From an uncultured Chloroflexia bacterium (GTDB lineage: Bacteria > Chloroflexota > Limnocylindria > Limnocylindrales > CSP1-4), in NCBI GenBank assembly GCA_963763775.1, contig CAVXPZ010000003.1:256001-320000 (forward strand): a DNA stretch of 64,000 nucleotides, in the 5' to 3' direction. A program made the translations under genes and the position numbers. Positions 37,631-42,910 of the stretch are shown here, in pieces (position 1 is the first letter of the stretch; each line of letters starts with the position of its first letter). The notes below the pieces were generated by a model. It did not search any database. It saw only the letters and a program-made list of their open reading frames with translations, and was not told where the DNA came from.

Positions 37631-40600
37631 ATGCGACGCATGGCACTGCCGGATCCGCCCGTTGACACTCGCCGCGAGCGATCCGTATCGTTCGCGCCTC
37701 TCGACGCGCCCGAGCGAATCCATCGTCCAGGCGACCGTCCGTCGATCCCGGTCGGTCCGGGTCGGCCCACGATCGCCGCCGCACAAGCCAGCGGAGCCCA
37801 CCGCGACGACGTGAGCGGCTATCCGATCCAGTACGCGAAGGTCCAGCCTCCGCCATTGCGGGAGGAGACCCTCGCACGCCATCGACTGCTCGACTGGCTT
37901 GCCGCGAAGATCCACCACCGCGTCATCCTGGTACTCGCCGATGCCGGGTACGGCAAGACCACGTTGCTGGCGGACTTCTCGGGACGGACGCGTCTCCGAA
38001 CGCTCTGGTATCGCCTCGACGAGGACGACCGCGACTGGATCTCGCTGCTGAACCACCTCGTCGCGGCCGGTCGCGAGGCGGACCCATCGTTCGCCCCGAC
38101 CACCGCGGCGATGCTGGCCGACACCAGCCTGACCGGTCCGACGATGGATGCGGTCATCGAGGTGTTCATCCGCGAGCTCCAGGGCATCGCGCCCCATGGG
38201 GCGGTGTTGATCTTCGACGATTTCCACCTGGTCGACGACGCGCCGGACGTGCAGCGGATCGCGCGCGAGCTCGTGACGCGGGCGCCGGAGCGGCTGTCGA
38301 TCGTCTTCGCGAGCCGGCGTGCGCCGGGCATCCCGATGGCGCGACTCCGCTCGATCGGCGAGGTCGGGGAGCTGACCACGGACGACCTGCGCTTCGACGC
38401 TGACGAGACCGATCGCCTCTTCCGCGAGTCATACGGCCGAACGCTCGATCCCGATGTCCTCGCCGATGTGACGGCTCGGACCGAGGGCTGGGCCGCGTCG
38501 CTCCAGCTGGTTCACGCGGCCCTTCGCGACCGTACGCCCGGCCAGATCCGCCAGTTCGTGCACAGCCTCACGGGTGCCGACCGCGAGCTCTACGACTACC
38601 TCGCCGAGGAAGTCATCGGCGACCTGCCACCTGACCTCCAGACCTTCCTGATGCGCACCTCGATCCTTCAAGTGGTCACGCCCACCTTTGCTGAAATTGT
38701 CACTGGGGCAGAGGCAGGCTCATGCAGTCGTCTCACCAACTCCGCCGAAAGGCTCACGTTGCTTAGCCGACGGTCCCGTGGACCAAGGAGCGAACTCCGG
38801 TATCACCCCCTTGTTCAGCAGTTCCTCATGTCTCGACTCACGCGAGAGCTTGGGACGGACGGCGTACGCGACCTTCATCGGCTAATGGCGGAATACGCCG
38901 GCAGCCGCGACTGGCGCCTAGCGGCGCACCACCTGTGGTCGGCAGGCGATCAAGTAGATGCTTGGGCGGTCATCGACTTGGCGGCCACCGGAATAGTTGG
39001 TCGAGGGGAATATCTGGTAGCGGCACCGTACCTGGAGGCGGCCACCGAGCGAGTCGAACGCGCCAGCTTCGAAGTAGTGCTGTCGCGTCGAGACTTCAGT
39101 GAGGGCAACATCCGCGGGGCGGTAGCTCATGCCGAACAAGCGGTGCTGCTTGAGCCACGCTCCGACCTGGCGCTTGCCAACTTAGCGTCCCAACACGTAA
39201 ATGCCGGCAACATCGAAGAAGGTGTCGTGTGGGCACGGCGCCTACTTAGCCAGCCGGGGGATCTCGGCATCCAGGGCATTGCTGCGGGAATAATCACAAT
39301 TCATCAGACGTCACTCGACGGCGACGTCACCGCTGCGATCACCGAGTTCTCGAACCTGGCGACGCAACAACACGCGGCGGGTTACATCCACTTCGAGGGC
39401 ATCAGTCAGCTCAACCTTGCTGACGCCTACAGAGCGAGTGGTGATCTCGTGGCATCTCGACGAGCCGCACAGCAGGCTGTCGAGCTCCTTCAGTCAAGTT
39501 CCGCCGGCTCGGAAGTGCAAGTTGCCCAGGCATACGTCGCCTGGGCCGATGCTCACCTCGCTGAGCTCGGAAACGCCCGAGCATCGATCGAGACAGCGTT
39601 GGCAACGGCGAACGACGCAAGTCGCGCGGACGTGCTCTTTGAAGCGAGCGACCTCGAAGCCGCATACGGCAGTCAGAACGCTGCCGCGGACCACCTTGCC
39701 CATCTGCGCGCAACGGGTGCCGGGGCGGTTGCCGGACAGGTCGCGTCCCTTGAAGTGCTCGTTGCGCTGAGGCTGGACAACCAGGAAGAGGCCCTGCGGA
39801 GGTCTGAGTCGCTGGGGAGGGGTGTCCCAAGCAGTCTGATCGCACACCAGGCTCGCGACATGGTTGTTCGTGCGCACGCCATGGCGTCCGCGATGGCAGA
39901 CGGCGCGAGCGATGCGATCGCCCGGGCACACTTTCATGCTGAGTCGCAGACGGCGGGGCTGTGGGCTGAGTACGCAGCTGCCCTTCGAGCCGTTACGGCC
40001 GAGCGCGACGGACTCAATGCCTACGTCAGATCACGTGGCCGGGTCGGCTTGTGGCCGCTGTCGCGTGTCGCAGAGCTGTTGACCAACCGCCTGAACGATC
40101 TCGGGGGAGACGAGGCCGATTCTGTTCGAGCCGAGGTGGTTCTCCGTCCCGACCGGTGGCGGTCGGCGCTCCGCCTCTCGGTCGACCGGCGAATGGGCGA
40201 CGGGTTGAACGCAGCGAGGCTGCTTGACTTGGTAGGTGAACACGAGGACGTCGTACGACTTCGAAATGTCGCTCACAAGCATCGGGGCCGACCAGACGCG
40301 GAGCTCGGCCGAGGATTGGCCCGGCGCCTAGCTCCGATGGTCTTTGTCGAGGACCTCGGCCGCGTCTCCCTGCGCATTGGCGAACGCGCGATAGAGGGTT
40401 CCTCAGTTCGACGCAAAGTGCTGGCGTTGCTCTGCTTCCTGGTCACCCGACCAAGGTTCTCGGCAACGCGTGACGAAGTGATGGACGCACTCTGGCCCGA
40501 CTTCGATCCTGGTGACGCACAGAACTCGTTAAACCAGACGGTGTACTTCCTAAGGCGCGTGTTTGAACCGGACTACAAGGACGATCTGTCGCCTGGATAC

Positions 40601-41506: not shown

Positions 41507-42910
41507 ATGCCAAAGTCCCTCAAGCTCTACATCGCTGGAGTCGTGGCTCTGGGCGCCGTTGCGCTCGTGGCTACGACTCTTGTGTTTCTGCCGTACCCGG
41601 AGATCGCGCTCGGATACGATCCCACCGCAGGTCAGCCATCCGATGCCAGCGTCTTCTTGGGGATCGTGTTCTGGACAATCCTGGCGCTGGTGGGTTCAGC
41701 CCTCCCTGTCCAACTCCCACGTGGCTCCCAGCACGCCGTGGCCATCGCGCCAATCATGGCTGCGCTGTTTCTAGGGGGGCCAACCGTTGGGGCTTGGGTG
41801 GCGGCAATCGGCACGACAGAGGTCCGAGAGCTCCGCGGCCGCATCCCGTGGTACGGGACCCTGGCAAATCACGCGGGCCTGGTCATTCCGGCCGTCGCCG
41901 GTGGTTTGATTGTCAATGTAACCCGAGGAGTCGCCGAAGGTCCGGTCGCACAATTCAGCGTGGCGATGGTCGCCGCGACTGTATTCCTGCTGCTGAACCT
42001 CCTGCTCGCTTCGGCGCTCCTCGCTCTCCGCACAGATCAACGCATCATCGAGGTCAGTCGCGGAGACCTTCGAGGCATCGCGGGAAGTTGGGTTGCACTC
42101 GCGCCGCTGGCGTGGCTGATGGCCCTGATCTACGGGGTCCAGTGGTGGGCGACCGCGCTGTTCGCCGTTCCGCTGTACTCGACGCGTCTCGCGTACCAGC
42201 GCTTCGTCGAGATGCGCGACATGTTCACGCAGACCATCGGTGCGCTCGCCGAGGCGGTCGACAAACGCGATCCGAACACCGCGCGCCACAGTCATCGCGT
42301 GAAGGAGATGTCGGTCGACATCGGCCGGGTCCTGCGAGTGTCCGACGCGGAGCTGGAGGCCCTGGAATGGGGCGGCCTGCTCCACGACGTCGGCAAGATC
42401 GGCGTCCCGGACAACGTCCTGCTCAAGCAGGACAAGCTCACGCGAGAAGAGCGGATGATCATGAACGCGCACCCGGTCCTGGGTGCCGAGATCATCGCCC
42501 CGGTCACGAAGCTCGCCCCCGAGCTGCCGATCATCCGGCACCACCACGAGTGGTACAACGGCTCGGGCTACCCGGACCGGCTCATCGGCGACGAGATCCC
42601 GAAGCTCGCCAGGGTCCTGCACGTGGCCGACGCCTTCGAGGCCATGACCGCCTCCCGCCCGTACCGACCGACACCGCTGACCAAGGAGCAGGCCCTCGCC
42701 GAGCTGCGCAAGTTCGCGGGTATCCAGTTCGACCCGGTCGTGGTCGACGCGTTCGTCCGAACGCCCTGGGTCGATGGCGTCCCCGATGCGGGCCGCACCC
42801 CGGAGCCCCGGCCGATCCCGCTCATCGCCCAGCACGCCGAGCAACTCACCAAGGCCGTCCGCGCCGACGACGCCACCGTCGTCGCCAACGCCACGGTCGA
42901 GCAGGTCTGA
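41507..42910 (+). CDS. Membrane-sensor HD-GYP cyclic dinucleotide phosphodiesterase
   Basis: Multi-TM N-terminus; HSHRV, LLHDVGK, HHEWYNGSGYP, VADAFEAMT..RPY, QFDP. Confidence 0.93.
   Translation: MPKSLKLYIAGVVALGAVALVATTLVFLPYPEIALGYDPTAGQPSDASVFLGIVFWTILALVGSALPVQLPRGSQHAVAIAPIMAALFLGGPTVGAWVAAIGTTEVRELRGRIPWYGTLANHAGLVIPAVAGGLIVNVTRGVAEGPVAQFSVAMVAATVFLLLNLLLASALLALRTDQRIIEVSRGDLRGIAGSWVALAPLAWLMALIYGVQWWATALFAVPLYSTRLAYQRFVEMRDMFTQTIGALAEAVDKRDPNTARHSHRVKEMSVDIGRVLRVSDAELEALEWGGLLHDVGKIGVPDNVLLKQDKLTREERMIMNAHPVLGAEIIAPVTKLAPELPIIRHHHEWYNGSGYPDRLIGDEIPKLARVLHVADAFEAMTASRPYRPTPLTKEQALAELRKFAGIQFDPVVVDAFVRTPWVDGVPDAGRTPEPRPIPLIAQHAEQLTKAVRADDATVVANATVEQV

Follow-up and report, generated by a model that had tools for sequence, protein, structure and literature searches.

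Why does codon usage change abruptly inside one gene and change back inside another, some 3.4 kb further on? The question is raised by a locus in a stretch of 64,000 nucleotides (nt) from an uncultured Chloroflexia bacterium of the class Limnocylindria (GenBank assembly GCA_963763775.1, contig CAVXPZ010000003.1, positions 256,001 to 320,000 of the forward strand), which is referred to here as the window; the genome comprises 3.3 Mb in 4 contigs and has 70% G+C. The locus holds a regulator gene (37631..41074, 1147 amino acids, aa), a cyclic di-GMP (c-di-GMP) riboswitch, two micro-open reading frames (ORFs) named pepA and pepB, and a gene for a predicted membrane-sensor HD-GYP phosphodiesterase (41507..42910). 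All features described lie on the + strand. A preliminary description of this DNA had pointed to a lower-G+C cassette with its edges inside the two large genes, and had compared it to a swapped pherotype module. Taken as a whole, the low-GC segment is in our judgement probably best explained as an old, family-wide, hypervariable cassette within a c-di-GMP signalling locus that is conserved among soil Limnocylindria.

The compositional part of that description held. Its G+C counts for four 60-nt lines (46, 34, 36 and 44) were exact on recounting, and the best two-segment splits of G+C at third codon positions (GC3) were placed at ~38666 and ~42098, close to the 38660 and 42110 given before; sliding windows of 50 codons had a sharp step at each edge. 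The low-GC3 cassette is taken as 38666..42097, from the step in the regulator gene to the step in the HD-GYP gene. GC3 was 291/345 (0.843) in regulator aa 1-345 (37631-38665) and 548/802 (0.683) in aa 346-1147 (38666-41071; Fisher p = 8e-9 against the N-terminal part). In the HD-GYP gene, it was 136/197 (0.690) over aa 1-197 (41507-42097) and 251/270 (0.930) over the remainder (42098-42907; Fisher p = 2e-11 against the first part). The neighbouring dnaB, DUF5317 and major facilitator superfamily (MFS) genes had values of 0.93-0.95.

Measured against the genome, the segment is unusual. The overall G+C of 38660-42110 was 0.624, and 0.7% of 6,579 equally long windows of the genome had 0.633 or less; median GC3 over 19,478 coding-like windows of 100 codons was 0.94, with 2.4% of them at 0.74 or below. 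Low-GC3 coding runs of at least 250 codons numbered 12 genome-wide. The longest was that of the regulator (850 codons, 38515-41065), and the regulator and HD-GYP runs were the only two in which the rest of the ORF was GC3-high (0.86 and 0.93, respectively). An earlier genome-wide ranking of change-points was dropped, as stop-to-stop ORF extensions dominated it. The codon-usage step is thereby confirmed, and this genome has no more extreme example of it.

Separate histories of the cassette and its flanks

The GC3 dip was found in 9/9 intact regulator and 7/7 HD-GYP orthologues first examined, the right edge falling in the same alignment column in all seven of the latter. A GC3 split with a likelihood ratio above 15 was obtained for 27 of the 31 intact regulators of the genus, with post-split GC3 of 0.59-0.74, and in loci from other genera of the family the regulator C-terminus had a GC3 of 0.75 or less in 19/23. 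The dip is family-wide, and a swap private to this genome was not borne out. The same holds for the swapped module read literally as a lower-G+C import: besides the spread of the dip, the synonymous sites of the cassette are saturated. Because they are saturated between cassette lineages, the low GC3 reflects a local equilibrium, not a donor signature. Nor does the locus look like a genomic island: its composition is atypical, but it is syntenic beside dnaB (16/18 of the first loci in the genus), genus- and family-wide.

The cassette and its flanks have diverged to different degrees in some lineages. Between loci L021 and L100, the proportion of synonymous differences (pS) was 0.34 in the ATPase part of the regulator and 0.29 in the HD-GYP domain, against 0.73-0.74 (saturated) in the second tetratricopeptide repeat segment (TPR2), the winged helix-turn-helix (wHTH) and BTAD, and 0.63 in the membrane sensor. 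In the pairs L036-L076 and L137-L138, pS was equal in cassette and flanks. A uniform local rise in rate does not fit, since the first pair is unequal and the other two are equal. Over ~50 kb of background, genomes G020, G113 and G097 were about equidistant, with most 1.5-kb windows at 0.85-0.93; against this background the flanks were typical and the cassette formed a trough, which was deeper for pairs differing in pepA.

Trees were built from the 31 intact regulators among the 95 loci, using aa 61-400 for the ATPase and aa 560-1140 for the cassette. In approximately unbiased (AU) tests, the ATPase data rejected the cassette tree (log-likelihood difference, delta lnL, 140; p-AU 2e-8), the cassette data rejected the ATPase tree (delta lnL 243; p-AU 9e-96), and the ATPase, TPR and DNA-binding segments each rejected the trees of the others. 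Rejection remained when only clades with ultrafast bootstrap support (UFBoot) of at least 95 were imposed (p-AU 0.0015 and 5e-7). Separate domain trees had been proposed as a check on the exchange idea, and for the regulator segments the phylogenies are indeed incongruent. One supported conflict involves the window itself, whose cassette groups with that of L100, while the ATPase of L100 groups with L021.

The edges were compared in the same way. In L021 and L100, the steps in GC3, aa identity and synonymous difference coincide, in the regulator at ~aa 555 and in the HD-GYP protein at ~aa 209. For the window, the left GC3 step is at aa 346 and identity to the nearest relative drops at aa 343; between lineages, the left GC3 edge ranges over aa 334-570. 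Across 19 nearest-neighbour pairs, the leftmost GC3 edge of the pair followed the identity edge (Spearman 0.77, p = 1e-4; 15/19 within 40 aa), in a min-of-pair test that was chosen post hoc and in which the 19 unique pairs share genomes. Identity plots, another of the proposed checks, thus lose similarity to the nearest relative at the GC3 step, and the position of the step shifts between lineages. Regulator aa 346-555 are GC3-poor in the window and GC3-rich in L021 and L100, and the conserved wHTH is GC3-poor everywhere, so a fixed link between conservation and codon choice fails.

These results show that divergent cassette lineages persist far longer than the surrounding genome diverges, and that cassettes and flanks are re-assorted, either by replacement or by differential sorting of old alleles, through homologous recombination within the conserved ATPase and HD-GYP parts; the left breakpoints depend on the lineage. 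The argument rests on the saturation of the cassette, the AU conflicts and the lineage-dependent GC3 edges that match identity edges. The proposal of exchange by recombination in the flanks is upheld in part: incongruent trees, uneven synonymous divergence and moving edges favour it, but neither a donor nor a cassette younger than its flanks was found.

Peptides, sensors and riboswitch

The first micro-ORF, pepA (41275..41328; ORF reading and genus comparison), encodes 17 aa in the window, with two ESIKGW units, a GTG start, the Shine-Dalgarno sequence AAGGAGGA and a TAG stop. Canonical pepA was recognised in 82/95 genus loci as 47 distinct sequences, located 50-60 nt after the riboswitch. In these 82 genomes, the Shine-Dalgarno sequence is perfect, the start is GTG in 74, and the length is 9-10 aa, or 17 aa where there are two units; the in-frame duplication was seen in four of them (the window, L026, L029 and L106). 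The C-terminus reads K-[G/A/P]-[W/Y/F], and the stop is TAG in 70 and TAA in 12, never TGA, in a lineage of 70% G+C. Codons vary synonymously while P, E, S, K and G are kept, and in other genera a pepA ending in K-x-W/F/Y was present in 21/23 loci. By these patterns, pepA is a real micro-ORF.

The second, pepB (41341..41430, 29 aa; ORF reading and comparison of loci), has a basic N-terminus, a hydrophobic stretch, ALAGG and the tail ASLRGF. Its identity was 72-79% over 29 aa in 13 loci, and the tail GGASLRGF was the same in 13/14 copies. On inspection, pepB appears signal-peptide-like and conserved; a Pfam search with it gave nothing. In L167 and L146, which belong to other genera, pepA and pepB share their last five residues (TLKPY in one, TLKGF in the other). 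As the shared residues occur within one genome, the two tails seem to co-evolve in these loci.

The genes of two candidate receptors adjoin pepA: that of the TPR regulator ends 200 nt before it, and the membrane-sensor HD-GYP gene begins 178 nt after it. When dnaB identity was held equal, pairs with the same pepA were more alike in both sensors than pairs with different pepA; within the 0.92-0.95 bin of dnaB identity, the TPR identities were 0.75 vs 0.49 and the membrane-sensor identities 0.83 vs 0.66. For 23 greedily chosen independent closest pairs, divergence relative to the flanks was higher when pepA differed, both in the TPR (ratio 3.29 vs 2.08, p = 0.03) and in the membrane sensor (2.39 vs 1.77, p = 0.04); these p-values are marginal and uncorrected, and linkage and flank distance confound them, same-peptide pairs being closer (0.92 vs 0.86). 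The DNA-binding part, which lies between the TPR and pepA, had no pepA-linked difference in these pairs (p = 0.37). Covariation of peptide and sensors, a check proposed in the preliminary description, is thus visible in both sensors and missing from the part between them, at marginal significance.

A promoter-like site, TTGACC-18-TATAGT (41071..41100), was located by a scan and an alignment of 89 loci; it overlaps the regulator stop codon, and both hexamers are conserved in the genus, with most columns at 0.9 or more. This overlap accounts for the near-invariant DNA sequence of the last 8 regulator codons. An 8-4-8 palindrome (41111..41130), read from the same alignment, is placed between the -10 hexamer and the riboswitch; its genus consensus is CCTAGTAC-N4-GTACTAGG, the window copy has 1 mismatch, and it is a putative operator or leader hairpin.

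The riboswitch aptamer (41141..41224) is of the c-di-GMP-II class and had been missing from the earlier inventory. It was found by covariance model as a full-length match to RF01786 (model 1-84; 61.4 bits against a gathering score of 53.5, E = 3.4e-13). It scored above cut-off in 94/131 genus genomes and was matched in 89/108 other genomes of the family (25/28 genera), against 0/42 in the small-genome sister family. Genomes of the genus of L159, L160, L164 and L165 hold several riboswitch copies. The scan also gave a terminator-like stem with a T-run (41212..41234), the 5' half of which, by its coordinates, falls within the 3' end of the aptamer; such an overlap would suit an expression platform, here presumably of an ON switch. 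Altogether ~250 nt are nearly invariant in the 89 aligned loci, comprising promoter, palindrome, riboswitch, terminator and Shine-Dalgarno sequence. Our literature search returned no work on c-di-GMP-II riboswitches in Chloroflexi.

The regulator was assigned by its translation and by profile and structure-database matches. It consists of a MalT-type ATPase of the STAND class (signal transduction ATPases with numerous domains; ~aa 61-440), a TPR or helical-repeat sensor (~aa 441-860) and a C-terminal wHTH with BTAD (~aa 880-1140). Its Pfam matches (AAA_22, TPR_2, Trans_reg_C and BTAD) were all under their gathering scores. Over aa 927-1133, Trans_reg_C (22.4 bits, cut-off 26.2) was followed by BTAD (21.7 bits, cut-off 22.1), both just below gathering and in the order of a Streptomyces antibiotic regulatory protein (SARP). 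For the nucleotide-binding oligomerization domain (NOD) ATPase and arm, homology to MalT was evident from NCBIfam NF003420 (186 bits over aa 69-460, far short of the 537 set as equivalog cut-off) and from the MalT structure 8bob, which matched aa 70-442 (E = 1.5e-33). Consensus TPR proteins matched aa 455-539, and Pfam found Trans_reg_C and BTAD at the C-terminus instead of a LuxR-type helix-turn-helix (HTH). Mean pairwise aa identity among orthologues was 0.7-0.86 in the ATPase, 0.23-0.41 in the TPR and 0.65-0.77 in the wHTH, which is nevertheless GC3-low.

The HD-GYP protein combines a six-helix membrane domain (aa 1-214, 41507-42148) with an HD-GYP domain from ~aa 226 (HD_5, 131 bits). The residues of its HD, HHE and GYP motifs (H293, D294, H345-H347, E348, G354, Y355 and P356) were invariant or at least 90% conserved in 46 sequences, and the product is predicted to be an HD-GYP c-di-GMP phosphodiesterase. 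Mean pairwise aa identity among orthologues was 0.22-0.53 in the membrane sensor and 0.8-0.94 in the HD-GYP domain; the sensor is most variable at the first loop (aa 29-48) and at aa 137-195, in a topology read by hand from a hydropathy plot. The AlphaFold2 model had a predicted local distance difference test score (pLDDT) of 76, and ~90 in the membrane part. It matched HD-GYP structures with Z 16-20 (9rbz, Z 19.7). The membrane domain matched S-components of energy-coupling factor (ECF) transporters with Z 12-15 over 150-192 residues at 8-17% sequence identity, among them 4m5b (Z 15.1, root-mean-square deviation (rmsd) 3.6, 192 aligned) and RibU, 5kbw (Z 14.2, rmsd 3.0, 161 aligned). These matches suggest the fold of membrane ligand binders, although for helical bundles a Z near 13 can reflect a common helix arrangement and is not decisive. 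The membrane sensor alone had no Pfam match at E up to 10 and no similarity to DUF5317.

Upstream, the locus is bordered by dnaB (34378-35727) and a poorly conserved, variable stretch (35728-37630) that contains a 436-aa ORF (orf436) without any family match in Pfam. In several of loci L021-L037, the best tblastn matches of this stretch sit on the strand opposite to dnaB and the regulator gene, which suggests that the segment is inverted or rearranged in several relatives. Downstream, a DUF5317 and MFS (MFS_3/EntS-like) transporter (43043..44933) lies outside the cassette, as its GC3 is high. It is a single 696-aa ORF in the relative L022 and occupies two reading frames here (DUF5317 43043-43648, MFS 43692-44930), owing to a frameshift or assembly error near 43650-43690; an apparent 645-aa 'DUF5317' ORF (42989-44926) was discarded as a chimera of two frames. 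At 45034-45360, G+C reaches 0.80, and low-complexity GAGCCN/GAGCCC repeats give Pro/Glu-rich repeats at the start of the downstream ORF, with possible frame breaks. Frameshifts were also seen in many regulators, and even in dnaB, of loci from few-contig (long-read) metagenome-assembled genomes (e.g. L026, L027, L029 and L030), where they are probably assembly indel errors.

Weighing the explanations

Several points weigh against an old cassette between recombining flanks that serves as a specificity module. The usable share of the material is small: each species was represented by one genome, intact genes for protein-level work numbered 31/95 for the regulator and 51/95 for the HD-GYP protein, and TPR alignments at 20-40% identity are uncertain. 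The cassette clade of the window and L100 joins two long branches and may result from long-branch attraction. Apart from the post hoc choice of the edge test, the GC3 edge of a genome taken by itself did not follow the identity edge (Spearman 0.24, p = 0.26, n = 24). The pair search found no real pair with a cassette more similar than its flanks, and therefore no donor transfer event was seen; apparent cases came down to misaligned ATPase segments (L118) or to uniformly close pairs. The three closest pairs (flank identity of at least 0.96) all share their cassette. Cassette divergence was 1.1-2.8 times that of the flanks in the closest pairs with the same peptide, so that part of the cassette signal is rate. 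Loci L159, L160, L164 and L165, from another genus, have no dip (regulator C-terminal GC3 0.82-0.91). To these are added the marginal and confounded p-values of peptide-sensor co-divergence, and the conservation of pepB, the riboswitch core and the wHTH inside the cassette. The idea of the cassette as a specificity module is accordingly kept for the variable sensors and pepA, which it covers; because the promoter, riboswitch, pepB and wHTH are highly conserved, it is not one uniform specificity block.

Metagenomic data added little. A scan of metagenome contigs gave no contig of the same species, the best match having 86% aa identity over aa 1-466, which again does not help the reading above. 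By a table reading of related metagenome contigs, which are short, 28/42 break off within the regulator gene and 12 span all of it. In ~21/96 genus loci, a contig ends within the cassette, e.g. just past the ATPase domain or no more than 150 nt from the riboswitch, and such ends possibly hint at strain heterogeneity or microdiversity. Two soil-metagenome runs shared 0.08 and 0.06 of words; their low-coverage unitigs of 151-330 nt were near-identical in flanks and cassette and uninformative on polymorphism or habitat.

A rival view is that the cassette evolved fast in place and without recombination, its sensor parts being under relaxed or diversifying selection and its GC3 lowered by a locally higher, AT-biased mutation input, the conflict between trees being noise and saturation. 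This would account for a cassette that runs ahead of its flanks even in the closest same-peptide pairs and is never younger than they are, and it agrees with major clades common to both trees and with TPR identity near saturation in most pairs. It is nonetheless unlikely, given that the synonymous ratio of cassette to flank is inconstant (~1 in L036-L076 and L137-L138, > 5 in L021-L100), that the GC3 edge sits at lineage-specific residues and matches the identity edge, that the wHTH is conserved as a protein yet GC3-low with saturated synonymous sites, and that the conservative AU tests still reject. If the low GC3 were instead un-ameliorated foreign DNA, recently swapped into this genome from a lower-G+C donor, the atypical composition would be explained, as would the lack of a close relative of the window cassette among the 95 genus loci (best nt identity 0.55 in the TPR, 0.69 in the membrane sensor). 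The dip with its constant right edge in all orthologues examined and its presence in other genera, the similar cassette GC3 everywhere, the synonymous saturation between cassette lineages, which would erase a donor signature, and an ORF and Pfam survey of 34-47 kb in which no mobile-element genes were seen make such an import highly improbable.

Two further explanations concern what the variable sensors detect. They might track something unrelated to pepA, for instance a small molecule or metal bound by the S-component-like domain, or a niche-specific cue, and pepA would then be no more than a micro-ORF with a leader or regulatory function in the riboswitch operon. The place of pepA 50-60 nt behind the riboswitch, its fixed Shine-Dalgarno sequence and its stop, always TAG or TAA, fit that role; the membrane domain is similar to ECF S-components, which bind vitamins and metals, and the only peptide with a predicted export signal, pepB, is invariant. 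However, the pepA amino-acid motif is kept through synonymous changes, its duplication in 4 genomes is in frame, and pepA identity goes with similarity of the TPR and the membrane sensor beyond that of the intervening DNA-binding part, and we regard a cue other than pepA as rather unlikely. The other explanation is an arms race with phages, in which the regulator would be an Avs/NLR-like defence sensor and the cassette would vary with phage proteins. Antiviral STAND proteins do combine a STAND ATPase with a rapidly evolving repeat sensor, which is the architecture found here. The chance of this is very small, however: PADLOC gave no match for the regulator, orf436 or DUF5317-MFS and only weak generic HD matches for the HD-GYP protein, the output is a DNA-binding wHTH/BTAD and no killing effector, throughout the genus the locus belongs to the core and keeps its place beside dnaB, and the membrane sensor and pepA vary too.

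For the old, hypervariable cassette that we favour, we infer that low GC3 is the compositional equilibrium of a rarely recombining segment, in which GC-biased gene conversion has been lost and/or selection is less effective. PMC4450053 reports a higher GC in bacterial genes that bear signs of recombination, an effect separate from codon selection. Alleles too diverged to recombine would lose the GC-biased push and come to rest at a lower GC3, and conserved flanks that go on recombining would stay GC3-rich; the coincidence of GC3 edges with divergence edges fits this account. The locus may then serve as a natural case in which an intragenic codon-usage step marks a recombination boundary, and it bears on the debate about whether the GC content of bacteria is shaped by GC-biased gene conversion (PMC4450053).

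As to function, high c-di-GMP would turn the riboswitch on, and pepA, pepB, the phosphodiesterase and the DUF5317-MFS transporter would be made. The pepA-derived peptide might be the lineage-specific ligand of the membrane sensor and/or the TPR sensor of the regulator, and the cassette would thus act like a pherotype module. We entertain, tentatively and with more doubt than belief, the further idea of a trans-species balanced polymorphism outside Firmicutes, in which a riboswitch-gated, leaderless peptide of 9-17 aa co-diversifies with a MalT-type STAND/SARP regulator and an S-component-like HD-GYP sensor, the GC3 steps being the scar of suppressed recombination, through lost GC-biased gene conversion, around balanced alleles. 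If true, it would directly connect c-di-GMP turnover with peptide communication that is specific to a lineage, and would place a pherotype-like system in an uncultured soil phylum, with a new combination of riboswitch, micropeptides, STAND/SARP regulator and S-component-like HD-GYP sensor. No description of such a module was found among the literature matches listed for c-di-GMP-II riboswitch/HD-GYP/Actinobacteria. The 47 natural peptide variants and their partner sensors are testable ligand-receptor candidates.

Comparison with known systems

The locus resembles other operons under c-di-GMP-II riboswitches (RF01786) in having a full-length, above-threshold aptamer ahead of the operon; here the first controlled genes are two micro-ORFs, followed by the c-di-GMP-degrading enzyme itself. 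In MalT, the STAND activator of the maltose regulon of Escherichia coli, the helical-repeat sensor binds the inducer. The regulator has a homologous N-terminal NOD and arm, with a helical-repeat sensor after them, and differs in carrying an OmpR/SARP-type wHTH with BTAD in place of the LuxR-type HTH, and in its hypervariable sensor.

RRNPP receptors (Rap, NprR, PlcR, PrgX and AimR) are cytoplasmic repeat-domain regulators encoded beside a small propeptide gene, the C-terminal end of the propeptide being the signal. The likeness here is pepB, which by inspection has the shape of a propeptide with a signal peptide and lies near a repeat-domain regulator. No RRNPP-family sequence match was obtained in Pfam or NCBIfam scans; the regulator pairs a STAND ATPase with SARP-type output, an export signal is lacking in pepA, which is the variable peptide, and the phylum is Chloroflexota. 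The ECF S-components (RibU, BioY, ThiT, FolT and NikM/CbiM) superpose on nearly the whole of aa 1-214 of the membrane sensor. They work with EcfT/EcfA, whereas here the domain is fused to HD-GYP, and no EcfT/EcfA genes were seen in the survey of 34-47 kb.

Parallels in layout are also offered by peptide-receptor systems with pherotypes. As in these, a hypervariable block extends over peptide and sensor parts, its edges are intragenic and its flanks are conserved and catalytic, and the history of the block differs from that of the flanks in AU tests, in synonymous divergence and against the 50-kb background. The cassette holds no gene for an AgrB/ComQ-like processing or modifying enzyme. In staphylococci, the variable region of agr (agrB'-D-C') is hypervariable, with intragenic edges and conserved flanks, and the segment studied here likewise has its edges inside genes, between conserved parts. 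It differs from agr in the class of its receptor, and neither an AgrB-type protease nor, in pepA, a thiolactone-forming cysteine is present.

For comQXP(A) of Bacillus subtilis, PMC6334282 describes a poorly conserved block that takes in the gene for the signal peptide and the 5' end of the receptor gene, which encodes the membrane sensor, with conserved catalytic parts adjoining the block and alleles that define communication groups. By comparison, the present locus has no ComQ-like prenyltransferase, its output is an HD-GYP phosphodiesterase and not a histidine kinase, a c-di-GMP riboswitch gates it, a second variable sensor (the TPR of the STAND regulator) stands upstream, and variation is seen between species only. 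What the two have in common is the central arrangement: a variable peptide gene placed before a variable membrane sensor that is fused to a conserved catalytic domain; here the peptide ends in an aromatic residue, and its gene lies ~180 nt before the sensor.

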